UHGV virus genome: UHGV-0144373
Strand: one strand, 5' to 3'
DNA: 64,000 bases
DNA from: a virus
Every line of letters starts with the position of its first letter. The stretch's first letter is position 1. The position numbers were made by a program, and so were the translations under genes. Shown one piece after another: positions 11,988 through 44,819 of this stretch. Under the pieces are notes generated by a model. That model made no database searches. It saw only the letters and a program-made list of their open reading frames with translations, and was not told the origin of the DNA.

Positions 11988-12188
11988 ATGACAACAATCT
12001 TAAAGGTATTGACACCCATACTACACATAGTAATCTTCTTCTTTGGTGTTAGTGTTATGGTATGGGGTTTTTCAGACCCACAATGGAATTTCTCATATCA
12101 TGGTAAGATGGATTTATGGTCATGCTTCAAACCATTTTTAGGGTTAGCTATAGCATTCAGTGCATTACCAACTAAGGCGAGATTATGA
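11988..12188 (+). CDS. small membrane protein (hypothetical)
   Basis: ATG11988 after GGTGGA; hydrophobic N-terminus. Confidence 0.3.
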   Translation: MTTILKVLTPILHIVIFFFGVSVMVWGFSDPQWNFSYHGKMDLWSCFKPFLGLAIAFSALPTKARL

Positions 12189-12580
12189 TTAAGTTGAACC
12201 AAAAACAGTTAGAGTGGATTAAAGATTACGCCTCAGAGTGTGGCTCTTGCGAAAAGAATCACGTAAGATATTCAACATTCCATACGACCTTCACATTGTA
12301 CATCAGCGACAACGTTCTAAGTGATTCTGTAGAAGATGGTGTAGCATTGCCTAATGAATTGCTTGACAAATTAGCTGTAGTCACTGGAACTTGGTCTGAA
12401 GAAGACGGTCATGAACTATCTAACGATGTTGCCTTCTACAGTCTTGAAAACATTATGAATCCAGAGTACATTATGCTAATGACTTGTGCACAAGACTGTG
12501 TGCCATTACAAAACTTTATTAAAGAGCACTGTGAAGAGTTTATTACTAAACAGGTTCCTTGTCAGGTGGTATTTGAATGA
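12185..12580 (+). CDS. hypothetical protein
   Basis: ORF with AAGGCGAG SD; Cys-rich; no motif. Confidence 0.4.
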   Translation: MIKLNQKQLEWIKDYASECGSCEKNHVRYSTFHTTFTLYISDNVLSDSVEDGVALPNELLDKLAVVTGTWSEEDGHELSNDVAFYSLENIMNPEYIMLMTCAQDCVPLQNFIKEHCEEFITKQVPCQVVFE

Positions 12581-12876
12581 GCAAAACAATTCGAAGAAAA
12601 GGTTTAAAGAACGTTCATGGACTTTATGAGTGGAGAAATGAGGTACGTAACAGAGAAAATGCTTCAGAGGTCTACTACCACTCTGATATGATGTCCAGAA
12701 AAGGTGGCTTTTACGACTTCACAAGTCAGCCTTGTAGAGAAATTAAGAAGGCTACTAAACGTCTTACAAGAACACAAATAAGGCAGCTTTCTAAGACATC
12801 CTTCTTAGATGAAGACTTTGACATTGATAGTAAGTCTCCAAAGAAAGCTGCTAAGAACACTTATATGTATTGGTGA
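12577..12876 (+). CDS. hypothetical basic protein
   Basis: ATGA overlap with upstream gene. Confidence 0.4.
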   Translation: MSKTIRRKGLKNVHGLYEWRNEVRNRENASEVYYHSDMMSRKGGFYDFTSQPCREIKKATKRLTRTQIRQLSKTSFLDEDFDIDSKSPKKAAKNTYMYW

Positions 12877-12885
12877 GGTAACTAG

Positions 12886-13371
12886 ATGAATTACATGGAG
12901 ATTAGACCATTTGACACAGCTAATGGTGAAGGGGTTCGTGTAAGCCTCTTCGTAGCTGGTTGTAAGCATCACTGTGAAGGCTGCTTTAACAGGGAGTCTT
13001 GGAAGTTTAATGCTGGTAAAGAGTTTACTTATGCAAACCTCTATGGAATCATCCAGCTAATGGGTGATAATGCTATCAGTGGGTTGTCAATACTTGGTGG
13101 AGAACCTCTGGATGATAGAAATATTCGAGAGGTCACCAATATATGCAAACGTATTAAAACTATTTATCCAGAGAAATCTATATGGCTCTGGACAGGTTTT
13201 CAACTACACGAAAAAATTCACCTAGATGTGATGAAATATGTTGACGTGGTGATTGATGGTAAGTATGATTCATCTAAACCCACAGTTAAACCATATCGTG
13301 GTTCTGATAACCAAAACCTCTGGAGAAAAGAGTATGGGTGGCAAGGTGATTGTCAGTGGAGAGCCGAGTAA
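12886..13371 (+). CDS. nrdG: anaerobic RNR activating protein (radical SAM)
   Basis: 161 aa; CKHHCEGC = CX3CX2C radical-SAM motif; follows nrdD. Confidence 0.8.
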   Translation: MNYMEIRPFDTANGEGVRVSLFVAGCKHHCEGCFNRESWKFNAGKEFTYANLYGIIQLMGDNAISGLSILGGEPLDDRNIREVTNICKRIKTIYPEKSIWLWTGFQLHEKIHLDVMKYVDVVIDGKYDSSKPTVKPYRGSDNQNLWRKEYGWQGDCQWRAE

Positions 13372-13495
13372 GTCTCGTCATAAAGTAGGTTATCGGTAAA
13401 GGACACTTTACAATGTTCTACAGAACAAACTTAACCGTTTGTGTCACTGAAAAAGAACTTAAAACATTTTGTGAAAATATTGAGAGAGATACGAA

Positions 13496-13753
13496 ATGGG
13501 ACTCTGGAACAGTTTTAAATCAAGAGTAAAAGCAGCACTAGCCTCATTAGGTATGCTCACTGGCGTTGATGTGACTCATCTTATGCAGAACTTTAAGATG
13601 GATGAGAAGCTGGCTAATGAGATTATGAAAAGTATCTATGTAGGCCGTGGTAAAGGTGGTAAGAAACAAGCCCACCGTCCGTCTGGTGCAGCAGCTATTA
13701 AACGAGCAGCTAAGAAAGCTCGTAACCGTAAACGTAATAAGAAGGCTAAATAA
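13496..13753 (+). CDS. hypothetical protein with basic C-terminus
   Basis: 85 aa; C-terminal K/R-rich tail. Confidence 0.4.
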   Translation: MGLWNSFKSRVKAALASLGMLTGVDVTHLMQNFKMDEKLANEIMKSIYVGRGKGGKKQAHRPSGAAAIKRAAKKARNRKRNKKAK

Positions 13754-13755
13754 TC

Positions 13756-14076
13756 ATGAGCAAAGTTTATAACACTCGTAAATTACAGATTTTCGTACTG
13801 TGCCAGTTTATGGCTAAAGAATACAACTTCTACTATTGTGGTACAGGTTTTATTAGCGACGATGATGGTTCATACCTACCATTCAAAGAAGCTGTAAAAC
13901 TCTTTAATGAAGAGAAAAGCTCTAAGAAAGATATTGAAAAGGTTAAGCTAACCTACAGTAAGAAAGATAAGAAAATTATCTGCCTAGATAACTTTGTAAA
14001 AGTTACTGGAGAAGCAAAAGAGTTTATGGATGAGAGTGAGATTTCATTCACAAGCATCTTGAAAGTAGCTCAGTAA
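13756..14076 (+). CDS. hypothetical protein
   Basis: ORF; no motif. Confidence 0.4.
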   Translation: MSKVYNTRKLQIFVLCQFMAKEYNFYYCGTGFISDDDGSYLPFKEAVKLFNEEKSSKKDIEKVKLTYSKKDKKIICLDNFVKVTGEAKEFMDESEISFTSILKVAQ

Positions 14077-14087
14077 ACAGATACTAT

Positions 14088-14118
14088 AAGGGAACTGTAA
14101 AGGTTCCCTTTTTATTTT
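14088..14118 (+). terminator. rho-independent terminator
   Basis: AAGGGAAC-loop-GGTTCCCTT then TTTTATTTT. Confidence 0.5.
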
Positions 14119-14127
14119 GGAGATGAT

Positions 14128-14643
14128 ATGTATCTGTCAAACCTGAAACGTTCTGCTGCAATGTCAGTGTTAAGACTCAGCTTTGAGGAACGTCAAGAGT
14201 TCATTGACTCCCACCAATACGACCCTTCCAACTCGAATCACATGATACTCTGGAATCGTGAGAGTACTCGTGAAAGAGCACTATTCCGCTATTACCCACA
14301 CTACACTATAGATAACCTGTATGAATTGTTTGTTGTGAAGAACACCATTACAGTGCTCAATCAACTTTGCAGATACACAGGTAGTCAATCCTTCACATTA
14401 GGCCACCACAAACCTGTTACAAAGGGTGGTGAGCATCACTGTGCAAACTGGTTTATCCAGACTAAACTTGATAACCAGAAGCAGGGAGATAACCTTCTAA
14501 GCACACCTAAGATGACCTACGAAGAGCAAGAGAAATATATCAAAAATAATATGCCAGATGTGCTTGACAACAACTATACAGATTTGGCAATATCTCTCCT
14601 GTTGAAGTTCGAGACAGTTTATAGGGCAACTTACAATGGCTAA
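14128..14643 (+). CDS. HNH endonuclease-like protein
   Basis: GHHKPVTKGGEHHCANWFIQTKLDNQKQGD fits the HNH pattern (HH...GG...N...N..K). Confidence 0.5.
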   Translation: MYLSNLKRSAAMSVLRLSFEERQEFIDSHQYDPSNSNHMILWNRESTRERALFRYYPHYTIDNLYELFVVKNTITVLNQLCRYTGSQSFTLGHHKPVTKGGEHHCANWFIQTKLDNQKQGDNLLSTPKMTYEEQEKYIKNNMPDVLDNNYTDLAISLLLKFETVYRATYNG

Positions 14644-14914
14644 AGAGAAGTGGGAGATTTTACCATTAGTCAGTGAAGGCGGTAATGGTTGCGAAATGTA
14701 CATGATACGTGGTCATGTTCCAGAACCAATTGCACTTGAGATGGTAAACAACTTTACAGATGGCTCTTACAAAGACTTAGGGGAGCCAACTATAAAGCAG
14801 CAATGGGTAAAGCCTGTACCAGACAGCACAGGTGGCTGTAGTGTACTTTATCACGTTGTAGACCCTGCAAAATGCAAATCTGCAATGGCAGTAACAAACG
14901 TAACTTTTGATTGA
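14636..14914 (+). CDS. hypothetical protein
   Basis: ORF overlapping the HNH gene end. Confidence 0.4.
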   Translation: MAKEKWEILPLVSEGGNGCEMYMIRGHVPEPIALEMVNNFTDGSYKDLGEPTIKQQWVKPVPDSTGGCSVLYHVVDPAKCKSAMAVTNVTFD

Positions 14915-14923
14915 GAGAAAATT

Positions 14924-15379
14924 ATGATTTTTTGCAGCTTCCAAAAAAGAATTATTGAGATTCTATACAATAAGTTTGGGACAGATAACACATTTGACTC
15001 AAATGAAGCTATTGAAGCCCTACAAGAAGGAAGTGATTATATCAAAAAACAGCCAATAGCAAACATCAGGTACTACTTGACTCAGATGAGAAAGTGGGGT
15101 GTGCTCATCGTGGTAGGACAGATTAAGCAACAAGGGAGGATGCTCATCAACCAATTAAACAGAGGTTTTATTGAGAAGCACATTCAGCTAGACTATTTAC
15201 TTAAAGAGCCACGAAACCAACGTGAAGAGCAGCAAAAAGACTTAAGTGGTGGTGTAGGTGTGTCTCCAGACATAAAATTCTTTATTGGTGAGTTGATGTT
15301 TGATACACTCCAAGATGCTGTTGAACACTGCAAAAAGTATATTATCAAAGTAAAACGTGCAAAAATTATTTGGGAGTAA
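14924..15379 (+). CDS. paralog family protein, subtype A (copy 1)
   Basis: Starts MIFCSFQKRIIEILYNKFGTDNTFDSNEAIE; ends AVEHCKKYIIKVKRAKIIWE; homologous to 15801-16265. Confidence 0.5.
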   Translation: MIFCSFQKRIIEILYNKFGTDNTFDSNEAIEALQEGSDYIKKQPIANIRYYLTQMRKWGVLIVVGQIKQQGRMLINQLNRGFIEKHIQLDYLLKEPRNQREEQQKDLSGGVGVSPDIKFFIGELMFDTLQDAVEHCKKYIIKVKRAKIIWE

Positions 15380-15383
15380 TAAC

Positions 15384-15779
15384 ATGTTTGAGCTTCTGAA
15401 GGTTCTGTATATAAATTTTGGCTATGATAAAACATTTTCTGGCTCACAACTAACTAAGGTTTTTAATAAATATCTACCACATGCTTCAATCAGGGATAAA
15501 GCTAATTGGTCTCACAGATTACGTAAAAGTGGGTATATTAGCGTTGTTGGGGCGACAGGCTTTAATAATGAGTATCTTATGAGAATCAATGAAAGCAAAG
15601 CTAAAAATGTGCTTTTAAATTGTAATGACTATCAACAAAAGGATGAAGAGGTCAGTGTAGGTGAAGTAGGGTACTTCATAGGTGACATACACTTTACCAG
15701 TATGGAGGCAGCAGTTGAGCATTGTAAGAGAACGGTTATCCAAACAAAAAGAAAGCGTATTGTTTGGGAAGAAGTTTAA
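15384..15779 (+). CDS. paralog family protein, subtype B (copy 1)
   Basis: ATG15384 (MFELLKVLYINFGYDKTF); shared C-terminal EHCK...K(R/K)xK(I/V)(I/V)WE motif; homologous to 16270-16650. Confidence 0.5.
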   Translation: MFELLKVLYINFGYDKTFSGSQLTKVFNKYLPHASIRDKANWSHRLRKSGYISVVGATGFNNEYLMRINESKAKNVLLNCNDYQQKDEEVSVGEVGYFIGDIHFTSMEAAVEHCKRTVIQTKRKRIVWEEV

Positions 15780-15800
15780 ACATTTGATTAGGAATACACT

Positions 15801-16265
15801 ATGATTTTTTGCAATTTACAGAAGCACGTAATAGAGATTTTATACAAAACCTTCGGGACAGAAAACACTTTTGACTCTAACGAAGCAATTGACACATTAA
15901 GAGAGAATAGCCTTTTTATACGAGGCCAGTCAATCAGTAATACCCGTGGGTATCTGACAATGTTAAGACAGTCTGGTGTACTGCTGACTGTAGGGCAGGT
16001 AAAAAGCAAAGGTAGACTAAGTATTAATCAATTAAATCGAGCCTTTATGGAGAAGCACATACAACTGTCAAGGATGCTAGATAATACGTGTGAAGAGTTG
16101 GGGAGTCCACAAAAAGCGAGTTCATCTGATGTTAAAGATGTGGATGCACAACCTGACGTAAGATACTTTATTGCTGATGTTATGTTTAAAACACTCGATG
16201 AAGCTATTGAGCACTGCAAAAAGCATCTTATTAAAGTTAAACATGCAAAAGTTATTTGGGAGTGA
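15801..16265 (+). CDS. paralog family protein, subtype A (copy 2)
   Basis: MIFCNLQKHVIEILYKTFGTENTFDSNEAID...EHCKKHLIKVKHAKVIWE. Confidence 0.5.
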   Translation: MIFCNLQKHVIEILYKTFGTENTFDSNEAIDTLRENSLFIRGQSISNTRGYLTMLRQSGVLLTVGQVKSKGRLSINQLNRAFMEKHIQLSRMLDNTCEELGSPQKASSSDVKDVDAQPDVRYFIADVMFKTLDEAIEHCKKHLIKVKHAKVIWE

Positions 16266-16269
16266 TGCT

Positions 16270-16650
16270 ATGATTGAACTGTTAAAAGTCCTATATAATA
16301 AGTTTGGTTATGATAAAACTTTTACTTGTTCACAGATACGTAGTATCCATGATAAGGAATTTCCAAATGTATCCAAGACAAACAAGTCAACTCGGTTCAA
16401 TCGTCTTCGCCAGAGGGGTTACATTAAAATAGTTGGATACAAGAATAACTCTTTCGAGTATGTAATGCAGATTAATAGAGAAGTGTCAAGTAAAATACTT
16501 GAAGAGCCAACAGCCGAAGAACAAAAGATACAAGACGGTGAAGTTCGCTTCTTTGTGGAGAAGGAAAGTTTTGGGTCAATAGATGAAGCTATCGAATATT
16601 GTAAAAAGAACATTATTCAGGTAAAGCGTAGAAAGGTTATTTGGGAATAA
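16270..16650 (+). CDS. paralog family protein, subtype B (copy 2)
   Basis: ATG16270 (MIELLKVLYNKFGYDKTF...EYCKKNIIQVKRRKVIWE). Confidence 0.5.
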   Translation: MIELLKVLYNKFGYDKTFTCSQIRSIHDKEFPNVSKTNKSTRFNRLRQRGYIKIVGYKNNSFEYVMQINREVSSKILEEPTAEEQKIQDGEVRFFVEKESFGSIDEAIEYCKKNIIQVKRRKVIWE

Positions 16651-16667
16651 AGAGAGAGAGAGAGAGA
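16651..16667 (+). repeat. (AG)8 dinucleotide repeat in the 5' leader of the prs-like gene
   Basis: AGAGAGAGAGAGAGAGA directly upstream of ATG16672. Confidence 0.9.
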
Positions 16668-16671
16668 AGCT

Positions 16672-17553
16672 ATGAAAACATCTATCCGTGTTACAGTTCA
16701 TTCACCGACTAAAGGGACTCACGAAGAAGAGTTTAACATTATCCAATTCCCTTCTGGTGAGATTGGTGGACACTTTTCACAAGAGCTTGTTGATTTTACT
16801 GCTTATGCAGCATCATCCATCAACAACGTGGTTATGATTGTAAAGGGTTATGACAAAGACACATTGTTTGCTGTTGCACTTGCTAAAGAAGCAATTGATG
16901 ATTTAGTTCCTCATGATTATGCTCTGAAGACTGTCATTTTTTACTACTTGCCAAATGCACGATATGACCGTCACATGTTTAAAGGCGACGCAGCAGCTTT
17001 AAAGGTTTTTGCTAAACAGATTAATGCAATGGGGTTTGGCGCAGTCTGTGCAGTTGACCCTCACAGCTATGTACCAGATAACCTGTTTAACTGCTTCCAG
17101 AGTATCCCTCAAAAGGAAATTGCAGTCCACTATGCAAATGACCCTCTGATTGATTACTTAGTAGCTCCAGATGCAGGTGCTTCTAAGAAGATTGCAGAGA
17201 CTGCTAAAGAGGTAGATAAACCATACATCACAATGTCTAAAGTACGCAACCTCAAGACTGGTGAAATCACTGGTATGCGAATCCTTGATGATGTTGATTT
17301 GACAGATAAAACTGTCATGATTCTGGATGATATTTGTGATGGAGGCCGAACCTTCATAGAAGCAGCTAAACACCTCCGTAAAGCAGGTGCAAAACGTGTG
17401 GAACTATATGTAACACATGGTATCTTCTCTAAAGGTGTTGAAAACTTACTTGACAATGGTATTGACCATATCTACACTACAAACTCTTTAGGCGAAGCTA
17501 AAGACCGTGGCTTAACACATTACGGCCAAGTTACTGTAGCAACCATTGATTGA
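16672..17553 (+). CDS. ribose-phosphate pyrophosphokinase-like protein (PRPP synthetase homolog; possible ADPR-PP synthetase)
   Basis: 293 aa; PRPP-binding loop MILDDICDGGRTF and VAPDAGASKK; Prs family by motif. Confidence 0.75.
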   Translation: MKTSIRVTVHSPTKGTHEEEFNIIQFPSGEIGGHFSQELVDFTAYAASSINNVVMIVKGYDKDTLFAVALAKEAIDDLVPHDYALKTVIFYYLPNARYDRHMFKGDAAALKVFAKQINAMGFGAVCAVDPHSYVPDNLFNCFQSIPQKEIAVHYANDPLIDYLVAPDAGASKKIAETAKEVDKPYITMSKVRNLKTGEITGMRILDDVDLTDKTVMILDDICDGGRTFIEAAKHLRKAGAKRVELYVTHGIFSKGVENLLDNGIDHIYTTNSLGEAKDRGLTHYGQVTVATID

Positions 17554-17563
17554 AACTTTATAG

Positions 17564-17584
17564 GGGCTTAAAAGCCCCATTTTG
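17564..17584 (+). terminator. hairpin (terminator/processing-like)
   Basis: GGGGCTT-AAA-AGCCCC followed by ATTTTG. Confidence 0.4.
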
Positions 17585-17598
17585 AGAGAGATTAAAAG

Positions 17599-19380
17599 AT
17601 GACTAAATCACTTTATGCAGTACCAGCAGGTCTTAATGCAGATGCTTACAAGGCATCACATATATATCAGTATCCAGATGCTACACAATATCTTATGTTG
17701 AACCTGACACCACGTAGTGATAAATGGTTTAACAGTCCTTTAGCAATTGACGGTGTAGTGGCTTTTGGTATTCAACGTTTTGTTAAAGATTACTTGATAG
17801 ACCACTGGAATGCCACTTTCTTTGAACGTGATAAAAAAGAAGCAATTGACGAAATCTTAGAAGTCATGAATGGTGTTCTGGGTAAAGATGCTATCGGTCG
17901 AGAGCATTGGGAAGCACTTCACGACTTAGGCTATCTACCAGTTGAAGTATACGCTGTAGAAGAAGGTGCAGTTGTTCCTATGCGTGTCCCAATGATTGTC
18001 TTCCAGAACACTGTTTCAGGCTTCCATTGGGTAGCAGGGTATCTGGAAGATGCTTTCTCTGCTGAGATTTGGAAGGCTTGCACTATTGCAACTATTGCAT
18101 TGCATTACAAACGCATCTGTAAGAAGTGGGCTGACCTTACTTGCGACAATGACTTACATTTACCCTATCAGTGCCATGACTTTGCTATGCGTGGTATGTC
18201 CGGCTTTACTGATGACGCATTTAACGCTGTAGGTCACTTAACCAGCTTTAAAGGAACTGATAGCTTCCCTGCTGTGTATACGGCTAAACGAATCTATGGA
18301 CAGTCCTACCCAATCTCTGATATTGGTAGCTCTGTACCAGCCACTGAACACTCTGTGATGTGTGCAAACATTGCTTGGGAAGGTGGTAATGAATTGATTG
18401 AAGATGAAAGACGTTTTAAAGGTGAGTTACAAACCTTCCGTCGTTTCTTAACAGAAACTTACCCAACTGGTATTGCAAGTATTGTTTCAGACACTTATAA
18501 CTTCTGGAGAACTGTGTCAGAAATCTTACCAGCACTACGTAAAGAAATTATGGAACGTGACGGTAAACTGGTAATTCGCCCTGACTCTGGAGACCCTGTA
18601 CATATTGTCACAGGTTATAAAGCAATCCACTTAGAGTGTGCTAAAAAGGCTTATTATGAGCACCTAAGCAAGCTGGAAGCCAGTGACACAATGCTGAATG
18701 CTGTTCTGAACATGAAGCTTGAAAACATCAGCTATGGTATTGCTGGATGGCTACTGTCAGAAGGATACGAAATGGTTGTTGATAGAGAAGACTTTGAAGT
18801 TGCTGATACAGTGATGTTGAAAAATGCTTATATGGTTGGTTCTGCAAACGTTATAACACGTCCTGTGGCTGAGATTGATGGAGCTATTAAGACACTGTAC
18901 AACATCTTTGGAGGAACTATTAACTCTAAAGGGTTTAAGGTACTGGATGAGCATATCGGTCTTATCTATGGTGACTCTATCACACTGGAACGTGCAAACG
19001 AAATCCTGAAGCGTCTGTATGAAATGGGTTTTGCAAGCTCTAACGTAGTATTTGGTGTAGGCTCTTACACTTACCAGTACATGACTCGTGACACCTTTGC
19101 ATTTGCTGTCAAAGCAACTCTTGCAAGCATTGGTGGTAAAGAGATTATGCTTGCAAAAGACCCTAAAACAGATAGTGGTGTTAAGAAATCTGCTTTTGGC
19201 GGTGTAGCACCTATGTGGGATGGTGATAAGTTGAAAGCTGTAGATGGCTATGGATTCCAGAGCTTTGCAGATGCACTTGAACATCCAGCTTGTGCTTTAC
19301 GTTTAGTCTTTAGTGACTCTGAGCAGTACGGTTACACATCTCTTGGTGATATTCGAAATAATATTGACAAGCAGCTTTAA
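17599..19380 (+). CDS. nicotinamide phosphoribosyltransferase-like protein (Nampt/NadV homolog)
   Basis: 593 aa; GFTDDAFNAVGHL, GTDSFPAVY and SVPATEHSVMC segments recalled as Nampt-family-like (from memory); immediately downstream of the prs-like gene. Confidence 0.7.
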   Translation: MTKSLYAVPAGLNADAYKASHIYQYPDATQYLMLNLTPRSDKWFNSPLAIDGVVAFGIQRFVKDYLIDHWNATFFERDKKEAIDEILEVMNGVLGKDAIGREHWEALHDLGYLPVEVYAVEEGAVVPMRVPMIVFQNTVSGFHWVAGYLEDAFSAEIWKACTIATIALHYKRICKKWADLTCDNDLHLPYQCHDFAMRGMSGFTDDAFNAVGHLTSFKGTDSFPAVYTAKRIYGQSYPISDIGSSVPATEHSVMCANIAWEGGNELIEDERRFKGELQTFRRFLTETYPTGIASIVSDTYNFWRTVSEILPALRKEIMERDGKLVIRPDSGDPVHIVTGYKAIHLECAKKAYYEHLSKLEASDTMLNAVLNMKLENISYGIAGWLLSEGYEMVVDREDFEVADTVMLKNAYMVGSANVITRPVAEIDGAIKTLYNIFGGTINSKGFKVLDEHIGLIYGDSITLERANEILKRLYEMGFASSNVVFGVGSYTYQYMTRDTFAFAVKATLASIGGKEIMLAKDPKTDSGVKKSAFGGVAPMWDGDKLKAVDGYGFQSFADALEHPACALRLVFSDSEQYGYTSLGDIRNNIDKQL

Positions 19381-19394
19381 AAGTATATGATAAG

Positions 19395-19417
19395 AGGCTC
19401 CTACGGGAGCCTTTTTA
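19395..19417 (+). terminator. rho-independent terminator
   Basis: AGGCTCC-TACG-GGAGCCT then TTTTT. Confidence 0.55.
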
Positions 19418-19433
19418 ATTTCTGGAGAAAACT

Positions 19434-19769
19434 ATGAAAATCAAAGAGATGAATATCAACATTGTCCTAGAAGAACGTTGGGAGAATATTAAGAAATCTG
19501 AAGATGGTAAAAAGTTCCTTAACAAAATTTTAGTAGCAGCTAAAGAAGAACTAACAGGTAAGGTTGCAGCAGCAATCACAATAAAGGTTTGTGTAAAAGG
19601 TCTCCCAGACAATCACCAATTTGCACTTGACGAGTTTAAAGAAGGCTTCTACAATCCAAACAAACAGATGATTGAAAGTAACTTTGCAGTATCTACAAGT
19701 ATCGTCCATGACAGAAGCTTTATCCTTTACAAAAATATGAGAGGTGAGTCATGCAAGCATATTGGATAG
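19434..19769 (+). CDS. hypothetical protein
   Basis: ORF with GGAGAAAA SD. Confidence 0.4.
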   Translation: MKIKEMNINIVLEERWENIKKSEDGKKFLNKILVAAKEELTGKVAAAITIKVCVKGLPDNHQFALDEFKEGFYNPNKQMIESNFAVSTSIVHDRSFILYKNMRGESCKHIG

Positions 19770-19927
19770 AAATTTTACTGTCACTTGGTAGTGTAGCAGT
19801 ATTTGTTTACCTTCTTTGCAAGTACTATGCAGAGTGCAAGAAGTGTGATTACTGCAACGGGGAAGGGTATACAAGAGCAGGTTGTTGCCCTATTTGTGGT
19901 GGTTCTGGTAAAATGTTTAATAAGTAA
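19751..19927 (+). CDS. small Cys-rich membrane protein (58 aa, hypothetical)
   Basis: ATG19751 to TAA 19925-19927; TM segment then CxxC...CCPICGG; below the ORF-track cutoff. Confidence 0.3.
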   Translation: MQAYWIEILLSLGSVAVFVYLLCKYYAECKKCDYCNGEGYTRAGCCPICGGSGKMFNK

Positions 19928-19955
19928 TTTAACAGTAAACTAAGAGGAAAGTATT

Positions 19956-22322
19956 ATGCGCATGGTAAACGACCACGCAGAAGTGCTTAAGAGTTCAACT
20001 TCTTTGGAGACATCTCAAGCACAGATTACAATGACACCTGAAATGTTCAGCCTTTTGAGTTCTGGTGTATACACATTTAAAGAGCGAGCAGTGATTCGTG
20101 AACTGTCATGTAATGCAGTGGATGCTCAGAAAGAAGCTGGAAAAGAGAACATCCCGTTCCATGTGCATTTACCTACTCGATTTGAGCCTTACTTTGAAGT
20201 CCGTGACTTTGGAACTGGATTGACTCATGATAAAGTTATGAGTTTGTACCTAAACTACGGAGCTTCTACGAAGAATGACTCTAATGATTACATTGGTGCA
20301 ATGGGTATCGGCTCAAAATCTCCATTTGCAATTGCTCAGTCATTCACAGTATCTAGCTATGTTGACGGTGTTGTTAATAAGTACTCTGTTTACCTTGAGA
20401 ATGGTATCCCTCAAGTAACTAAGCTTACTACTAACCAAACAAATGAACCTAATGGTTTAGCTGTACGTGTGGCAGTTGCTGACCACCGTATTTCAAAGTT
20501 CTTTGAAGAGGCTGGTCACGTATACTCATACTTTGCTGTAAAACCAGAAAGTAACATTGTATATGATGACGTGTTAGCAGATATGAACGTCATTGCCCGT
20601 GAAGAAGGTGTTTATGATGCTATGATTCATAAGCAAAGCTGGCGTTCTAGTGGCAACAGGACAGATTTTAATGTGGTAATGGGTAATATTGCCTACCCAG
20701 TTAATATGGAAGCATTACTTGGCGATGATTTCTTCAAAGTCTTGCCAGAATTTTTCCGTAGGAGCGTAGACCTTGTAAACATTTACATGCCTATTGGTTC
20801 AGTGGCTATTGCAGCTTCTCGTGAAGCATTGCAGATGAATGATACGACAAAAAATGTTATTATCGAGGCCACCAAAAAGATAACTGGAGCAATTACAAAG
20901 GATGTTATCAAGAAAGTTAATAGTCAACCTACACTCATGGATGCTGCACAGGCTTATGCTGAGTTACGTTTGAACTCACGAGAGATGTTTAATGCTGTGT
21001 GTCCAAAGCTGGAGTGGGGTGGTGTTAAGCTTGATTCTCTGGAAGAAGAATTACTAAACATTCGTCGTGGGATTATCTACGCAGAAGACGGCTCAGTCAT
21101 TTATGAACGTGACGGCAAAGGTAATATTAAGGTTGATAGGAACGGGAACAATATCCCTAAAGTAGATTATCTTTATAATCCAGTTGCTTATGTCAAGTTC
21201 AACTCTTTAGAGAGTAAGATTCGTGCAACAGCACTTTCCTACACTCAAGAGGCAAGTATGTTCAATATCTTTGGTGCAATGCGTAAAAGCCAAATTGAAC
21301 AGTTTTTGTTCGTGATTAATGACCGTCGCAATAAAAATGGCACTGAGAAGACTGTAGGCCGCAATCAGATTCTGCGTGGTGCATGTCGAGATTACGCCAA
21401 TGAGTCAAGTCTGTTTCACAGATACAATGGTATTGTGTTTGTATTCTCGACTGAAAAAGAGTTAGATGATTTAATCAACCTGCATAAACTTGATAAAAGC
21501 TTGTTAAAGATTGTGAAAATGTCTGATAAGGAACACCATTACCAGCGTAAAGAAGCTGTCAGGGGTGTTGTAAAACTCTGGAAAGCTGTTCCAGCAGAAG
21601 GTGTAGCCTCATACACAGAGGTGTCAGAAGACTTTGATACAATTGAAGAACCTCAGCTTTACATTAAGGCAGTTGGTGATACAGTTGATGGCGAATGTTT
21701 TTGCTCATCTCCAGAAGATGTAGCTAAGTCAGTTGCTAATGTTACAGGGAAGACAGTCTATGTTTTCCGAAAAGCAAATTGGAAAAAGATACCAGAAGAC
21801 TGGATTGAAGTAGATGAGAAGCTCTTGAACGACAGTTTAACTGATGTTCACTGGATTAATCATAACAGGTATATGACACGCATCTGTATGCGTGGTGTCC
21901 TTAACCTTACAAGCTGTTGGATTATTACCAGAAACTTTACGTTCAATAACAGGAAGATTTCTGATGGTTATTGCTATTCACGGGACACAAACAAAACTAT
22001 CTTCCTAGAAGGTAATGAAGATGCTGTTGAGGCAATGTTCGGTAAAATCCAATACGTTGCTGCACAATTTGCATACACTTACACTATTAGTGTGTTGCAA
22101 GATTTGAAAAGGTGTCTTGACAATGATACAAAGCTTTATAAGAAAATTAAGAAAGCTGGTGACCGTATGTTTATTAAGGTGACAAACTACTTCTCAAAAA
22201 GAAAACAAGAAAACTTCTTGCTTTCTCATTTAGATTGGAATAAAGTGTCACCCATTGAAGTGAGTAAGTTCTTGGGCTTTGATGTGAAGTGTGTTCCAGA
22301 AGGGACTACAATTTACGATTAA
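19956..22322 (+). CDS. rIIA: rIIA-like protein with N-terminal GHKL (Bergerat-fold) ATPase domain
   Basis: 788 aa; N-box ELSCNAVDA, G1 box VRDFGTGL, G2 box GAMGIGSKS in canonical order; rIIA assignment from architecture, size and following gene. Confidence 0.5.
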   Translation: MRMVNDHAEVLKSSTSLETSQAQITMTPEMFSLLSSGVYTFKERAVIRELSCNAVDAQKEAGKENIPFHVHLPTRFEPYFEVRDFGTGLTHDKVMSLYLNYGASTKNDSNDYIGAMGIGSKSPFAIAQSFTVSSYVDGVVNKYSVYLENGIPQVTKLTTNQTNEPNGLAVRVAVADHRISKFFEEAGHVYSYFAVKPESNIVYDDVLADMNVIAREEGVYDAMIHKQSWRSSGNRTDFNVVMGNIAYPVNMEALLGDDFFKVLPEFFRRSVDLVNIYMPIGSVAIAASREALQMNDTTKNVIIEATKKITGAITKDVIKKVNSQPTLMDAAQAYAELRLNSREMFNAVCPKLEWGGVKLDSLEEELLNIRRGIIYAEDGSVIYERDGKGNIKVDRNGNNIPKVDYLYNPVAYVKFNSLESKIRATALSYTQEASMFNIFGAMRKSQIEQFLFVINDRRNKNGTEKTVGRNQILRGACRDYANESSLFHRYNGIVFVFSTEKELDDLINLHKLDKSLLKIVKMSDKEHHYQRKEAVRGVVKLWKAVPAEGVASYTEVSEDFDTIEEPQLYIKAVGDTVDGECFCSSPEDVAKSVANVTGKTVYVFRKANWKKIPEDWIEVDEKLLNDSLTDVHWINHNRYMTRICMRGVLNLTSCWIITRNFTFNNRKISDGYCYSRDTNKTIFLEGNEDAVEAMFGKIQYVAAQFAYTYTISVLQDLKRCLDNDTKLYKKIKKAGDRMFIKVTNYFSKRKQENFLLSHLDWNKVSPIEVSKFLGFDVKCVPEGTTIYD

Positions 22323-35978: not shown

Positions 35979-36530
35979 TTAAATCAGTGTTTCCAGAACT
36001 GTTTTTAGTGATGACTTAGTTGTCTGATAAAAATGAGTGAATCCGTTGTTGTTATCGAATATCTGCATCATGATATCATCTCCCTTGATTGGGTATACTC
36101 GGATATCATAGTGAAACCCATTAAAGACAGCAGAACCATTACAGAATACACTAAAATCACTTGCTGAGATGTACTCTTCATGACCTGTGATTTTTATACA
36201 GACACCTTTACTCGGTCTCTTAGGATTGATATCTTCCATCACAGACATACTCTGTCCACCAAGAGATACCATAGTGACCACTTTACGGTTCTTCTGTTTA
36301 AAGTACATCTTAACTTTCTGTAAAGTGTCTTCATAGAACGGGTAAGACTTCTCTACAAAGACTCCTTCAAGTGGCTCTTTACCATTTTTAACTTCTCTGA
36401 TATGTCGTATTGAGAAGACAAGCTGCTCTAGTATGTCAAGGCTTTCTTTGGATAATGCTTCTCGAACATCACTCCAGTCAAGTACTAGGTAGTTACCTTC
36501 AACTTCTTTTACATCCATAAGCTCTTTCAT
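35979..36530 (-). CDS. hypothetical protein
   Basis: 183 aa; ATG with GAAGGTAG SD; no confident motif. Confidence 0.4.
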   Translation of the reverse strand: MKELMDVKEVEGNYLVLDWSDVREALSKESLDILEQLVFSIRHIREVKNGKEPLEGVFVEKSYPFYEDTLQKVKMYFKQKNRKVVTMVSLGGQSMSVMEDINPKRPSKGVCIKITGHEEYISASDFSVFCNGSAVFNGFHYDIRVYPIKGDDIMMQIFDNNNGFTHFYQTTKSSLKTVLETLI

Positions 36531-36581
36531 TTCGCTACCTTCTAAGTTCTACAAAGGGGCTATCAAGTAACCCCTAAGTTA

Positions 36582-36806
36582 TTACTCAGACTTTTCAGTC
36601 TTCTTATCGGACTTCTTACTAGTCTTCTTCTCAGCTTTCTGTTCAGGTTCCTTCTCAGAAGTTGCCTTGATAACCATATCAAGAAGCTCTGATAAGTCAC
36701 TCTTCAGCAAAGTAACAGGCTGCTCATTGTAGAAGTTTTTGTCAAGATAGACTTTAAACTCTTCTATAGAAGGAAATCCAAAAATTGGTACAGGTGTCTT
36801 AATCAT
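36582..36806 (-). CDS. hypothetical protein with Lys/Glu-rich C-terminus
   Basis: 74 aa; GGAGAGA SD. Confidence 0.4.
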   Translation of the reverse strand: MIKTPVPIFGFPSIEEFKVYLDKNFYNEQPVTLLKSDLSELLDMVIKATSEKEPEQKAEKKTSKKSDKKTEKSE

Positions 36807-36882
36807 TACTTAGTCTCTCCATAGGCATCTTTTAAGATTGCCTTGTTAATCATTTCAGCGATTGCAAAACGAACACATACAG

Positions 36883-37386
36883 CTATAATTGTAGGTTGCA
36901 TTCTTTACTTACCTCTTCAAGTTTAACCTCAGAGTCCTTAAGTCGTTTCTTATGAACTCTGAACCTCATTAGTGAGATGATGATACCAGCTAAAGGAACA
37001 GCATACAAGTACCAAACATCATGTACCTTTGCAGTAATCTGTGTAATGGTCAAGTCTTGAGCTATACAACTGATTGCTGATACTGCCAGTAACATTGCTA
37101 AGAAGAACGCCAGTACCATAACAATACTTAGGCAACCTCTGGCATGGTGTTCATGCTTAATGCACTTATTCTTTTCGTCAACAACTCTGTTGTAGTCGTT
37201 TGTAAAGTCTCTGTAGAAAGCTTTCAAGTATTCTTGACTGTAGCCCTCAAAGCAACCTGTACCGTACCAATAATCACCACCAAAATGTGCTATGATACCG
37301 GTATCTCCATTTGGTTTGGTTACTCTTAGGGAGACATGATGACCAGTCTTCTGGTAATCTATTTTGTATCTTTCTTCGTAAATCAT
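36883..37386 (-). CDS. membrane protein (hypothetical)
   Basis: ATG at 37384-37386 with AGAGGTG SD (track start 37416 also possible); two predicted TM helices. Confidence 0.4.
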   Translation of the reverse strand: MIYEERYKIDYQKTGHHVSLRVTKPNGDTGIIAHFGGDYWYGTGCFEGYSQEYLKAFYRDFTNDYNRVVDEKNKCIKHEHHARGCLSIVMVLAFFLAMLLAVSAISCIAQDLTITQITAKVHDVWYLYAVPLAGIIISLMRFRVHKKRLKDSEVKLEEVSKECNLQL

Positions 37387-37601
37387 TTTCCAACACCTCT
37401 CAATCGTTTGTTCCATTCAAGGTCAACAAGTCTTTGCAGGACTTTCCCTCTAGGTGTTACACCTTTTAAATCTGCATCGTAGCAACGGTAAAAGTCACCT
37501 TCAGCGTGTTTACCATAGCATTTTCTGATATTCTGGCTTCTGCGATACTGTTCTAACAAGGACAGTTTGTAGTAATCTTCGACTGTAGTTAGTTTTTTCA
37601 T
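37383..37601 (-). CDS. hypothetical protein
   Basis: 72 aa; stop overlaps next start (ATGA). Confidence 0.35.
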   Translation of the reverse strand: MKKLTTVEDYYKLSLLEQYRRSQNIRKCYGKHAEGDFYRCYDADLKGVTPRGKVLQRLVDLEWNKRLRGVGK

Positions 37602-37684
37602 TCTTTCACCGTAGTGTTTCTCTAGAAACTAAAAAGGGAACTACCTCTCGATAGCTCCCATCATAATTAATATTGTATACTCGG

Positions 37685-38266
37685 TCAAGAGTATTTTTTA
37701 GGCAGCAATGCACTACGCTTGTTACTCTCTTCACTCAACAGTGCAATGAAATCATCACTTTTACCTTTCCACGGGCTGAATGAAGGTATGTGTTCGCGGA
37801 TAGCCTCAATCACTGTTTTAAGTGCTGTGTTCTTCATCCACCAATCAGAATCTGCTGATGCTACCACGTAGTATCCACCGTCATCAGTTAAAATTGGCTC
37901 TGAAATACATGGTGAAATCAAAGTGGTGATGATTGAACCATTGTTCATGTAGTATGTGCGTTTCATAACCTTTTCAAGAAGCTTGTGAAGGTCACCAAAC
38001 AGTGTTACAAGTTCTTTGTGGTCAATATCTTTTTCGAGGTTTGCTCGATACTTCAATAGAGCAGCATCAACCTCTCTATCATTGAACTTGAAATATTGAA
38101 CTTCTTCAACAAGGCAAACACTGATGTTGTTAACATTCATAGTCAACTTACAAACTTTTGCAGGAGAGTTGATACTTGGTTGAAAAAGTGCAACACACCC
38201 TTCAATGTTTCCAAAATGTTGTACCAGTGTTACTTGTGGAGTGATATTCTGTTGCTCTTCGGACAT
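37685..38266 (-). CDS. hypothetical protein
   Basis: 193 aa; GAGGAAA SD. Confidence 0.4.
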   Translation of the reverse strand: MSEEQQNITPQVTLVQHFGNIEGCVALFQPSINSPAKVCKLTMNVNNISVCLVEEVQYFKFNDREVDAALLKYRANLEKDIDHKELVTLFGDLHKLLEKVMKRTYYMNNGSIITTLISPCISEPILTDDGGYYVVASADSDWWMKNTALKTVIEAIREHIPSFSPWKGKSDDFIALLSEESNKRSALLPKKYS

Positions 38267-38610
38267 TACAGTTTCCTCATTAAATACTTTTTAAGTTGTG
38301 TGTTAGGTTTCTCAAAAACTTCTATAGAAGATATCTTGACAGCTTCACCACGCATACCAGTATGTTTGAATATGTAATACTCTAACATCCCTATGTACTT
38401 TGCTGGTAAGTCATATTTGACATACACCGTCACAGAATCTTCAAATTCGACAACCTTTGTACCATCTTTGTAGTTAAACTCTTTAGGATGGTTGTAGTTG
38501 TCTATGTCGTACATTAAAAAGAGTCTTTTACGTTGTAGGTCAAGCTTATTTGTTAAAGACTCTTTGATATCTGAGAAGTTTTTGTACACTGTGACATGGA
38601 GCTTATTCAT
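38266..38610 (-). CDS. hypothetical protein
   Basis: ATG at 38608-38610 with GAGAG SD (track start 38652 is an alternative codon). Confidence 0.35.
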   Translation of the reverse strand: MNKLHVTVYKNFSDIKESLTNKLDLQRKRLFLMYDIDNYNHPKEFNYKDGTKVVEFEDSVTVYVKYDLPAKYIGMLEYYIFKHTGMRGEAVKISSIEVFEKPNTQLKKYLMRKL

Positions 38611-38896
38611 CGTTAAACTCTCTGACGAAGAAATAGTTGACTTTGTTATCACCTACCATAAGGTCAAAGCAGGTATTTTCAAAAGGTTTGTTGTAGGCAT
38701 CATATGAAACATATGGGTCAGCTACTTGCTTAGTGCTTAACTTCTTACTTGATGGTTTTAAGAGGCCACCATACAGCTTCTTGATAGCCTCTTCTACAAC
38801 AGACCAGATAATTTCGTCAGTAATTTCTTCGTACAGGTCAAGTTCACGCTCTAGTGAGAAGTCACAAATAGGGAAAATAACCTGTACTTTACTCAT
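38603..38896 (-). CDS. hypothetical protein
   Basis: 97 aa. Confidence 0.35.
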   Translation of the reverse strand: MSKVQVIFPICDFSLERELDLYEEITDEIIWSVVEEAIKKLYGGLLKPSSKKLSTKQVADPYVSYDAYNKPFENTCFDLMVGDNKVNYFFVREFNDE

Positions 38897-39285
38897 TAAC
38901 GGATAACCTGTGTGACTTGAATTGCTTCAGTTACTGATAAATCACCTACTTGCTCTTCTTTGATAAAAGTGAAGGTAAGTTCAACGGGTTCTTGCTCTTC
39001 TTGCTCAACCGGAACACCGTTAAGCTCATCAAAGATTGACTGAGTTGTCCAGTCTTCTCCACCATCTGGATAATGGATGGCGTAACGAGGAAACTCCATA
39101 TCATACCAGCCAAATACAGGACAACCATCTTCATCATCTCGCATTCTGCGAAGGGTGCTACCTGAGCCTGTAAAGCGAAGACTAATATTCCCATTACACT
39201 CAAAAATCACTGCGTCGGCAAGTCCAGTATCTTCTCGACCATCATGTCCAAAAGTGTCAACTTTTACTTGAATCTCTTTATTCAT
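38896..39285 (-). CDS. hypothetical protein
   Basis: 129 aa; GAGAGAGG SD. Confidence 0.4.
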   Translation of the reverse strand: MNKEIQVKVDTFGHDGREDTGLADAVIFECNGNISLRFTGSGSTLRRMRDDEDGCPVFGWYDMEFPRYAIHYPDGGEDWTTQSIFDELNGVPVEQEEQEPVELTFTFIKEEQVGDLSVTEAIQVTQVIR

Positions 39286-39676
39286 AAAAACCTCTCTCTG
39301 CTTGTTCGATTTTTGCTCTTAAAACTTCACAACGTTCTATGTGATATCTGGCCTCATGCTCATGTGTTGCCAAAGTCCTTTCAAGAACTGTTTTATAGTA
39401 ACTCACAAGCTGCTCTCTTGTCAAGGGATGTTCTGAAATAATATCAAGGCCGCTTTCCCCTAGAGTATTAAACTGCCCGTGTTCATTTACATGGTAAGTC
39501 TCAAACTTGAATAGGCCGTTGTTAGCAGCCTCAATAGGTGAGAGTTCAACCAACTCAACAGTAAACATTGTGTGTACCCTATCACCAATTGTAACAATGT
39601 TGCTACCAATGATTCTCACCATTGAGCCATTGCGAGTGTACTTAAAAGTTCCAAAGTCACTAGCCCAAAGTTTCAT
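39278..39676 (-). CDS. hypothetical protein
   Basis: 132 aa; AAGGAGAAA SD. Confidence 0.4.
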   Translation of the reverse strand: MKLWASDFGTFKYTRNGSMVRIIGSNIVTIGDRVHTMFTVELVELSPIEAANNGLFKFETYHVNEHGQFNTLGESGLDIISEHPLTREQLVSYYKTVLERTLATHEHEARYHIERCEVLRAKIEQAERGFYE

Positions 39677-39727
39677 AGTTTTCTCCTTAGAAAATAAAAA
39701 AGGCTCCCGAAGGAGCCTATGAAGATA

Positions 39728-40192
39728 TTACTTTGGATATACACTGTCAAGATAAATCTCAGCTTCCATTCTACGTCTGTTTTTCAGGCCGTTTGAAGTG
39801 ACATTCTTACCTTTGACTGTAACCTTGTTCCACCATTGCATAGCTTCTGCACAACCGGCCTTATTACCATCGTTGTGGCGCTTGATAAATGTGGAATCCT
39901 GCATAGCTGTGATGCCAATGTTGTATGTTTCACTTACAAGTGCATCAAACTCATTCTGAGAAGTTGGAACCTTGATAGCTTTGTTCACTGCTGCAACGAA
40001 CTTTTCAACATCTGCGAGAAGATACTGTTCAGCTTGTTCAGCGGTAATCCTCATACCCATCTTAACAGGTTTGCCAGCAATACGGATTGTCCCGTACCCA
40101 ATTGTGGGGATTCCAGCAGAATCTTCGTAAGCCTCTAGCTTAAGACCTTCAAAGAACTTAATAGCTTCTAAACCTTTTCTTGAGAGTTGCAT
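39728..40192 (-). CDS. endolysin, GH24 lysozyme (T4 e / lambda R-like)
   Basis: 154 aa; N-terminal LEAIKFFEGLKLEAYEDSAGIPTIGYGT matches the catalytic Glu/Asp/Thr region of phage lysozymes; GGAGGTATA SD. Confidence 0.8.
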   Translation of the reverse strand: MQLSRKGLEAIKFFEGLKLEAYEDSAGIPTIGYGTIRIAGKPVKMGMRITAEQAEQYLLADVEKFVAAVNKAIKVPTSQNEFDALVSETYNIGITAMQDSTFIKRHNDGNKAGCAEAMQWWNKVTVKGKNVTSNGLKNRRRMEAEIYLDSVYPK

Positions 40193-40824
40193 TATACCTC
40201 CCCTGCTGGGTTAACTGTAACTGTTGCCGCATTAGATGTTACAGAGCCACCTGCGCCAGTAACTACACAGGTGTAGCTTCCTGTATCAGCAGCGGTTGCA
40301 CCTTCTTTGGTGTAAGTTGCAGTAGTTGCATCGAGGATGTCTTCCTCACCTTTCTTCCACTGGTAACCTGTCGCACCTGTTGCCACAACATTCAGCGTTA
40401 AGGTCTCACCTTCATTGATTTCTTGATTGGTTGGTTGCTGAGTGATTGATGGTGGCTTGATAGCATCCTTCAACTTAGCATTCAACATTGAGAATGGTTT
40501 AACTCTTGCCAGCCATTCACAATAAACTGTATCAACGTCTTTACCATTGATAATTGCATATTGTAAGTCCATGAAGAAGTCAGAAGTTCTCATTTGAGCA
40601 CCGATGCTGTAAAGCAACTCATCACTAAATGGGACTTTATAGGCTGGTTTGTAGTCAAACTTCTTAACTTCTGCAATATCAGCTTCAGGCCAATACGAAC
40701 TATAGGTAAGTGGTAAAATAGCCTCTTGATATGTTCTAAAATCATATCTCTTACCAGCCTTTACGTTTGCAATGAAGCCCTTCACAAACTCTTTGAAGTC
40801 TGGGTAAGTCTTTGCTTTAATCAT
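40192..40824 (-). CDS. paralog pair member with C-terminal Ig-like domain
   Basis: 210 aa; N-terminal 125 aa homologous to the next gene; C-terminus PPSITQQP...EGETLTLNVVATGATGYQWKKGEE...DTGSYTCVVTGAGGSV is an I-set-like Ig pattern. Confidence 0.45.
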   Translation of the reverse strand: MIKAKTYPDFKEFVKGFIANVKAGKRYDFRTYQEAILPLTYSSYWPEADIAEVKKFDYKPAYKVPFSDELLYSIGAQMRTSDFFMDLQYAIINGKDVDTVYCEWLARVKPFSMLNAKLKDAIKPPSITQQPTNQEINEGETLTLNVVATGATGYQWKKGEEDILDATTATYTKEGATAADTGSYTCVVTGAGGSVTSNAATVTVNPAGEV

Positions 40825-41192
40825 TTCTTTTTAGCCTCTAAATGTGCGTTTAGTCTAAAATAACCTTTGTGATGCGGAGATACATCACCAACAACAACAC
40901 CTTTAACCTTATAACCTTTACCAATTACATACTGAATATCCATAAGGAATCTTCCCAGACCAACAATATGGAACATTGGATATAATAGATTCTCAGAGTC
41001 TGGAATATTGATTTCTGGTTTGTAGGTGCGTTGTTCGCTTGTTGGTGTAATATCTTCTTCAGGCCATTTACTGAGTCTCCATGTCAAAGGTGTTGGGATA
41101 ACATCATTAAGGTTGTACCTTTCACCATTTTGCACGGAATTGATATAGGATTGTAGGAAGCAATAAAAGTCTTTTGCACTCTTAGCTTTCAT
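40821..41192 (-). CDS. paralog pair member (no Ig domain)
   Basis: 123 aa; shares Y(P/N)DF..F(V/L)..(F/Y)I..V..G.RY and FxMDxQY(A/V)I motifs with the upstream paralog. Confidence 0.45.
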   Translation of the reverse strand: MKAKSAKDFYCFLQSYINSVQNGERYNLNDVIPTPLTWRLSKWPEEDITPTSEQRTYKPEINIPDSENLLYPMFHIVGLGRFLMDIQYVIGKGYKVKGVVVGDVSPHHKGYFRLNAHLEAKKK

Positions 41193-41239
41193 TAAATATC
41201 CTTATAAATAGTTAAAGGGGCATCAGCCCCTATTCACAC

Positions 41240-41830: not shown

Positions 41831-42057
41831 TTTTCAGTTCTCCTGCGATTTATAATTTTGCTGCAATAGAGAAACGAAGTAAACTCACTGGAAGAAACCA
41901 TTAAGTGTTGTTCACTAGATTGAGCCATTGCCCTGAAATACATTCCAGTCAAAGCATCATAGTGACTATTCTTTCCAATTGAGGTTATATAGCCATGACT
42001 CTTTGCAGTTTGATATAAATCTATAATATCTGCGATTTCTAATTGGGAACTACACAT
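41824..42057 (-). CDS. hypothetical protein
   Basis: 77 aa; AAGAGGA SD. Confidence 0.35.
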   Translation of the reverse strand: MCSSQLEIADIIDLYQTAKSHGYITSIGKNSHYDALTGMYFRAMAQSSEQHLMVSSSEFTSFLYCSKIINRRRTEKC

Positions 42058-44484: not shown

Positions 44485-44561
44485 CTCTGTTTAGCTCAGC
44501 TTGGTAGAGCGTTCCGTTTGGGGCGGTAAGGCCGGAGGTTCAAGTCCTCCAACAGAGACCA
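44485..44561 (+). tRNA. tRNA-Pro (anticodon TGG)
   Basis: Cloverleaf folded by eye: acceptor CTCTGTT/AACAGAG, anticodon loop TTTGGGG, T-loop TTCAAGT, encoded CCA. Confidence 0.65.
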
Positions 44562-44568
44562 AATTAAT

Positions 44569-44646: not shown

Positions 44647-44653
44647 GTTTTGA

Positions 44654-44725: not shown

Positions 44726-44737
44726 TCATTGAGAATT

Positions 44738-44813: not shown

Positions 44814-44819
44814 ATTTTG

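Follow-up and report, generated by a model that had tools for sequence, protein, structure and literature searches.

Tandem gene pairs coding for predicted winged-helix proteins upstream of the prs and nadV genes of a Felixounavirus-like phage

The 64,000-nucleotide (nt) viral sequence UHGV-0144373 (hereafter the window, i.e. the whole stretch of DNA that was analyzed) carries at positions 14,924 to 16,650, between the conserved gene g92 and a prs homolog, a cassette of four consecutive genes, A1, B1, A2 and B2, which encode related small proteins. We propose, with a probability of about one half, that these proteins are accessory, paired, heteromeric factors with a winged helix-turn-helix (wHTH) fold. 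Their array arose by an old tandem duplication of a gene pair together with recombination. An earlier sequence-only reading had described four small tandem open reading frames (ORFs) of 126-154 amino acids (aa), belonging to two subtypes in the order A-B-A-B, and both the ORFs and the phylogenetic clades agree with this description. The N-termini that it quoted (MIFCSFQK and MIFCNLQK for the A type, MFELLKVLY and MIELLKVLY for the B type) and the C-terminal motif common to all four proteins are present. The genes of the cassette and its junctions are as follows:

14924-15379, + strand: A1, 151 aa (ORF)
15384-15779, + strand: B1, 131 aa from its ATG (ORF, Shine-Dalgarno sequence and metagenome gene calls)
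15801-16265, + strand: A2, 154 aa, the second A-type paralog (ORF)
16270-16650, + strand: B2, 126 aa from its ATG, the second B-type paralog (ORF, Shine-Dalgarno sequence and metagenome gene calls)
14912-14923, + strand: left junction, comprising the g92 stop and the GAGAGA-type ribosome-binding region TGAGAGAAAATT before the A1 ATG
15780-15800, + strand: B1-A2 spacer ACATTTGATTAGGAATACACT, which is a diverged version of the A1 upstream sequence AACTTTTGATTGAGAGAAAATT
16651-16671, + strand: right junction, an (AG)8 run (16651-16666) plus AAGCT, which is the ribosome-binding region of prs and the counterpart of the repeat at the left junction

Homology of the four proteins extends over their whole length. 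Their alignment contains 24 invariant columns, including L14, F18, G19, F24, R56, G59 and V64 in the N-terminal half, some of which belong to the hydrophobic core, and it gives 56% identity between A1 and A2, 40-42% between B1 and B2, and 28-37% between A- and B-type proteins. All four proteins match PHROG 29478 (of unknown function) along their full length, with E-values of 5e-63 (A1), 9e-67 (A2), 3e-14 (B1) and 7e-15 (B2), and a hidden Markov model (HMM) of the family, run over the 64-kb window, recovered exactly these four ORFs. The shared C-terminal module proposed by the sequence-only reading carries the motif described, but the similarity is not limited to the C-terminus. That reading had also pointed to low-complexity similarity and assembly duplication as explanations that would undo it. 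The former is ruled out, as is a similarity confined to the C-terminal part, by the full-length homology of sequences that are not of low complexity. The latter is ruled out by blastn comparison of unit 1 (A1-B1) with unit 2 (A2-B2), which gave only patches of 74-82% identity, by the saturated synonymous divergence (dS) between paralogs and by the presence of the array in independent genomes. Saturated dS and patchy DNA similarity indicate that the duplication is old rather than an assembly artefact.

Five clades were distinguished in a neighbour-joining tree: A1, A2 and A3 in the A group, and B1 and B2 in the B group (100% bootstrap). A and B form separate clades, with the (A1,A2) and (B1,B2) splits inside them, which fits a history in which A and B separated long ago and an A-B block was duplicated afterwards. 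Such a block duplication had already been suggested from the sequence, and it is supported by the paired clades, by the short A-to-B junctions (4 nt in both units), by the likeness of the B1-A2 spacer to the sequence upstream of A1, and by a stretch of 184 nt with 78% identity (15266-15448 vs 16152-16334), the best-conserved DNA between the two A-B units. This stretch runs from the 3' end of A across the junction into the beginning of B, and its conservation suggests that the junction is either constrained or has undergone gene conversion.

At both A-to-B junctions, the GGGAG Shine-Dalgarno sequence of the B gene sits within the Trp-Glu codons that end A, and this arrangement, together with the 4-nt spacing, would favour coupled and roughly equimolar synthesis of A and B. 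The longest ORFs of B1 and B2 begin at upstream GTG/TTG codons (15357 and 16171; 140 and 159 aa, respectively). In both genes an ATG (15384 and 16270) follows a GGGAG at a distance of 7 nt, in agreement with the 131- and 126-aa gene calls in the related loci L007-L009; the ATGs following GGGAG are likely the true B-type starts. Start calls of B-type genes differ between records (e.g. 135 aa in phage finno, L001 3744-4151).

Structural models of A1 and B1 were built with AlphaFold2 using the family alignment. Both models (mean predicted local distance difference test score, pLDDT, of 78 for A1 and 76 for B1) present the same architecture, i.e. H1-b1-H2-H3 and a hairpin wing (pLDDT ~90), a helix, a disordered segment and a beta-beta-alpha element (pLDDT ~75). 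The predicted N-terminal part follows the wHTH topology, H1-b1-H2-H3 (recognition helix)-b2-b3 wing. In A1 the winged helix would span aa 1-79 and be followed by helix alpha-4, an acidic disordered linker (~aa 96-117) and the C-terminal beta-beta-alpha element with its ...KIIWE tail (aa 118-151); B1 is arranged in the same way but lacks the six residues at the N-terminal end and has a shorter linker. The N-terminal domains of the family have isoelectric points of 9.1-10.0, the linkers are acidic (net charge of -1 to -4), and an invariant Arg (R56 in A1) ends H3. From the fold and the charge we infer that the basic winged-helix head is a nucleic-acid-binding domain. Members of one subtype share 62-95% identity in the recognition helix and wing, 62-100% in the folded parts and 33-63% in the linker; between A and B, identity amounts to 22% for the recognition helix, 24% for the wing, 44% for the C-terminal module and 60% for the tail. 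This pattern indicates that the heads are subtype-specific, while the C-terminal element is common to all.

The ratio of nonsynonymous to synonymous substitution (dN/dS), calculated by the Nei-Gojobori method, was 0.03-0.25 for orthologs wherever dS was informative (0.08 for A1 and 0.14-0.25 for B1), the same range as for the neighbouring genes g171, g92 and prs. A higher ratio (0.65) was obtained only for A2 of the window compared with L009, where dS is just 0.02. Moreover, A1 is 84-86% identical at the aa level to its orthologs in L007 and L008, and its neighbours are 67-81% identical, the comparison being one of Felixounavirus-like and Mooglevirus-like backbones. Judging by these ratios, the family is under purifying selection, and the variation among phages is one of presence or absence and of pair identity, not of sequence within a subtype. 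The suggestion that the expansion reflects diversifying host-interaction proteins was not borne out: diversifying selection is ruled out by the dN/dS values, and the predicted winged-helix fold is not that of a receptor-binding or surface protein.

A comparison of copy number in relatives, proposed with the sequence-only reading, revealed loci with 0, 2 or 4 genes in several pair combinations. The 3.6 kb around the cassette is 94-96% identical to FelixO1-like myoviruses (Ounavirinae, genus Felixounavirus) of Escherichia coli and Salmonella, e.g. phages finno and vB_CECAV_041. The g92-prs locus is empty in phage EC6 and in most relatives; only A1-B1 is found in L007 and L008; an A2-like gene with a gene of the third subtype, A3, is present in Pr103Blw and in the Moogleviruses Mordin, Henu11 and KMM2; and A1-B1-A2-B2 is found in the window and its close relatives. 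The A2 orthologs in Pr103Blw (81% identity) and Mordin (73%) are each the first gene of a two-gene cassette. Since a pair occurs alone or in other combinations, the four-gene array is only one of several states of the locus. No odd number of genes and no single A or B gene was encountered in 16 GenBank records and 5 metagenome contigs, apart from one distant singleton described below, and the evolutionary unit is the gene pair.

The cassettes are bracketed by direct repeats of the junction formed by the g92 stop, the ribosome-binding site (RBS) and the ATG. The flanking repeat of Mordin is perfect over 37 bp, those of L008 and Pr103Blw measure 16 and 17 bp, respectively, and GAGAGA-type junctions are present in the window; the length of the GAGAGA tract varies among EC6, Pr103Blw, L007 and L008. 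In EC6, which has no cassette, a single copy of the junction links g92 straight to prs. Recombination at the repeated RBS junctions could delete, insert or exchange whole pairs between phages and so give rise to loci with 0, 2 or 4 genes. Backbones that are closely alike can hold different pairs: A1-B1 is found in L008 and A2-A3 in Mordin, although their prs genes share 97.6% identity. When the four-copy phages were compared with each other, their cassettes were found to be more alike (96-99.6% identity, dS of 0.02-0.13) than the flanks (92-96% identity, dS of 0.26-0.35), which indicates a recent spread of the cassette across backbones. Carriage by a homing endonuclease or a transposase was rejected as an explanation, as no such gene travels with the cassette; g171, which resembles HNH proteins weakly, is found in all relatives regardless of the cassette.

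The family is small, comprising 17 clusters among 5.8 billion proteins. It was detected in 16 of the 231 Ounavirinae phage records of GenBank that contain g92 (tblastn), i.e. in ~7%, and 11 GenBank phage records as well as two metagenome contigs (L009 and L010) carry the complete A1-B1-A2-B2 array. Pattern scanning of JGI metagenomes yielded two loci, namely the four-gene array of L010 and a frameshifted A2-like fragment, L011 (JGI CYGL01008360.1, 1.1 kb, 620-1055), in which an A2-like gene following g92 is interrupted after 72 codons, being either a pseudogene or the result of a sequencing error. Analogous scans of IMG/VR viral contigs and of 185,579 GTDB bacterial and archaeal genomes revealed no relatives, and a search of the literature on accessory, winged-helix or tandem-paralog genes of Felixounavirus found nothing on the family.

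An exhaustive HMMER search of 1.84 billion representative proteins retrieved three representatives of the family and the proteins P0018, P0019 and P0020. P0019 and P0020 were rejected as homologs, since they are repeat proteins whose scores sum very weak repeats. The sole credible distant relative is P0018, a 125-aa singleton (E-value of 1e-7) with a wHTH-like head and the C-terminal module, through which it matches PHROG 29478 (E-value of 9e-9); a search seeded with P0018 returned only itself. It is encoded in single copy at L006 8001-8378 (a 57.6-kb phage contig of Logan SRR31815898) with nadV-rIIB synteny, its gene lying downstream of rIIB and of SLT lysozyme-like and HAD/PNKP-like genes, not upstream of prs. 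Candidate domain assignments for the family proteins were also rejected. Matches to XopL_C, DapB_N, Tap-RNA_bind, CV_2116 and NCK SH2 (E-values of 0.03-0.1) were judged to be noise, the SH2 (NCK) match of the C-terminal module (E-value of 0.1) reflecting only a short beta-hairpin-helix resemblance. Relatedness of this module to the Listeria-Bacteroides repeat (Flg_new-like) was dismissed because the 38.7 bits of P0020 are made up of 7 repeats, each contributing at most 5.7 bits.

The surroundings of the cassette are composed of the following elements:

14059-14087 and 14088-14110, + strand: promoter-like site TTGAAA-17-TACTAT and, directly after it, a hairpin with a T-run (consensus scan)
14128-14643, + strand: g171, the first conserved gene of the operon, PHROG 3500 of unknown function (ORF list, PHROG match)
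14636-14914, + strand: g92, a conserved 92-aa gene, PHROG 4726, the left flank of the cassette (ORF list, PHROG match)
16672-17553, + strand: prs homolog (Pribosyltran/Pribosyl_synth, PF14572; Pfam), matching gene 1 (Adps) of the NARP1 operon
17599-19380, + strand: nadV/Nampt homolog (NAMPT_N + NAPRTase, PF18127 + PF04095; Pfam), matching gene 2 (Namat) of NARP1
19392-19415, + strand: strong intrinsic-terminator-like hairpin with a 10-bp stem and a T-run, end of the transcription unit (consensus scan)

The region 14059-14110 is the predicted upstream edge of the transcription unit holding the cassette. Its promoter-like site and hairpin are kept across Felixounavirus and Mooglevirus relatives, and a terminator is annotated in Mordin at the place equivalent to the hairpin, as is another one after nadV, equivalent to that at 19392-19415. 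According to the predicted signals and the Mordin annotation, g171-g92-A1-B1-A2-B2-prs-nadV is one transcription unit, extending from ~14059 to 19392-19415. In phage Bas63, also a Felixounavirus, NARP1 (genes 79-80) rebuilds NAD+ and thereby overcomes NAD+-depleting defence (bioRxiv 10.1101/2024.02.11.579819). The adjacent prs and nadV genes of the window show the Pfam domain pattern of NARP1 as annotated for Bas63; in GenBank records of relatives they are named ribose-phosphate pyrophosphokinase and nicotinamide phosphoribosyltransferase.

Several further features were recorded in the window. The product of g171 (171 aa) contains an H-x-K-x...HH...N-W...N-Q stretch and gave a weak match to an HNH-endonuclease PHROG (E-value of 2e-4); the HNH/homing endonuclease label is applied inconsistently among relatives, in some of them to g171 and in others to an upstream 106-aa DUF7390 gene. 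A scan of positions 12000-20000 with Rfam gave no match. A cluster of 25 tRNA genes is located at 44485-49696 (+ strand), and both the GC skew and the AT skew flip sign at ~36000-42000, suggesting a block of minus-strand genes.

The mechanism that we favour builds on the predicted architecture, in which a flexible acidic linker connects the basic wHTH head of each protein to a short, conserved beta-beta-alpha module at the C-terminus, whose last residues are ...K(I/V)(I/V)WE. The shared C-terminal module would join the two products of a pair (A+B, or A2+A3) into a hetero-oligomer, an assembly to which the conservation pattern, the pair-wise inheritance and the coupling of the genes point, and an asymmetric target (DNA or possibly RNA) would be contacted by two unlike recognition helices of the complex. 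These accessory, probably heteromeric, nucleic-acid-binding proteins might be dispensable regulators, or DNA binders directed at the host or at a competitor, co-expressed with the NARP1 genes.

Several observations weigh against this interpretation. None of the four proteins matched a wHTH family in Pfam or NCBIfam, even at E-values of up to 1, and the MarR, PadR, Fur and BlaI/MecI family HMMs of these collections did not recognize them; a sequence-profile search of the PDB yielded nothing below an E-value of 0.1, and the PADLOC defence HMMs matched neither the four proteins nor P0018 at E-values of up to 1. AlphaFold2 confidence in the C-terminal module is only moderate, and the basic/hydrophobic tail ending in ...K(I/V)(I/V)WE (the last 9-13 residues) is unplaced in the models. 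RNA and proteins, too, can be bound by winged helices. No cassette-specific operator is seen in the promoter/hairpin region that precedes g171, which does not differ between phages with none, two or four of the genes, and the lack of the family in ~93% of relatives implies a role outside the core programme. Finally, tight translational coupling is not universal, since the paired genes of Pr103Blw and Mordin are separated by 29-33 nt.

This last observation is also what would be expected if each paralog acted independently, as a homodimeric wHTH regulator or a nucleoid-binding protein with its own target, the pairing being a relic of the block duplication. We regard this as possible though rather doubtful. 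It accords with the habit of wHTH regulators (MarR, PadR and Fur families) of forming homodimers, with the subtype specificity of the recognition helices and with the change of partner of the A2-like gene, which is paired with B2 in the window but with A3 in Pr103Blw and Mordin, the A2-A3 pairs being only loosely coupled. However, the family genes were never odd or single in the GenBank records and metagenome contigs (the distant P0018 excepted); in addition, the C-terminal module is the part most conserved between subtypes, as expected of a shared interface. Another explanation, which we consider unlikely, takes the position of the pairs directly upstream of the NARP1 genes, and their predicted co-transcription with them, as a sign that they are factors of counter-defence or inter-phage competition, which would bind a component of host immunity or a competitor, or the nucleic-acid signal concerned, and so neutralize the one or exclude the other, alternative pairs being matched to alternative host variants. 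The patchy distribution of the family (16 of 231 related records), the alternative cassettes found at one locus in the near-identical backbones of L008 and Mordin, and the recent spread of the cassette between backbones are in line with it. Nevertheless, its support is guilt by association: there was no match to PADLOC or other known defence families and no signal of positive selection, a basic winged helix suggests that nucleic acids are what is bound, and the four-copy phages, isolated on E. coli K-12, DH5a and diverse Salmonella, follow no host pattern.

We consider it very improbable that the array is of no use to the phage, be it as selfish cargo, as cargo in decay or as an artefact of assembly or annotation. 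The genes are dispensable and absent from most relatives, the flanking direct repeats would ease their loss, and a frameshifted A2-like copy exists on the short metagenome contig L011; but all four ORFs are intact in the 11 GenBank records and two metagenome contigs with the array, dN/dS is low (0.03-0.25), A1 is better kept than the flanks between distant backbones, the paralogs are too diverged for an assembly duplication, and no transposase or homing-endonuclease gene accompanies them. A far-reaching extension of the heteromer proposal, to which we assign a rather small chance, is that the pairs represent a hitherto unrecognized class of winged-helix heterodimers, modular and exchangeable, that form a functional part of the NARP1 locus. 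A1-B1, A2-B2 and A2-A3 would then be specificity alleles swapped at the RBS repeats, and the IIWE module a new docking or oligomerization domain; such factors might, for instance, sense or neutralize a nucleic-acid-based component of immunity, or tune the expression of the NAD+-reconstitution genes.

Regulators of the Fur, PadR, MarR/SarX and BlaI/MecI type, in which a winged helix is combined with a separate C-terminal oligomerization element, are the closest known kind. Unlike them, the family has no Pfam or NCBIfam match, and its C-terminal beta-beta-alpha element and WE tail are unmatched. Fur possesses conserved His/Cys/Glu metal sites in a C-terminal dimerization domain, whereas the family lacks His/Cys clusters and contains only one invariant Cys; the dimer interface that MarR forms with its N- and C-terminal helices is absent as well. 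Furthermore, these regulators are encoded by single genes located beside the operon that they regulate, in contrast to the heterotypic paralog pairs of a lytic phage described here. A gene for a small HTH-class protein in a counter-defence operon (here NARP1) resembles the aca genes, by analogy only. The latter are located downstream of acr genes and their products repress the operon promoter via operators, whereas the family genes lie upstream of the effectors, are absent from ~93% of the phages with the same operon, leave its promoter unchanged and show no detected homology to aca. A further likeness is to the two-domain phage transcription factors of the T4 MotA type, which are also small and have their DNA-binding domain tethered by a linker to another domain, presumed here to contact a partner. 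In MotA, which is indispensable for middle transcription, sigma70 is bound by the N-terminal domain and DNA by the "double-wing" domain at the C-terminus. In the family the domain order is reversed, the genes are accessory and there is no homology to MotA.

The finding is a modest one: on the basis of the models and comparisons, this is a real, selected and phage-restricted wHTH family with a paired, modular layout, not something categorically new. PHROG 29478 has so far had no function, fold or organization assigned, and the architecture, the A1, A2, A3, B1 and B2 subtypes, the pairs and the locus are added here. For a family labelled only "hypothetical protein", this provides a predicted fold, a domain map and a natural experiment, in the form of isogenic-like phages with 0, 2 or 4 genes, as well as a C-terminal module without relatives among 1.8 billion representative proteins. 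For the genomics of Felixounavirus in phage therapy, it draws attention to a variable locus beside NARP1 with a possible influence on how the phages behave on certain hosts. If the proposed function is correct, this would be a compact example of optional DNA-binding factors that lytic phages keep within a counter-defence operon in the form of exchangeable modules of two genes.

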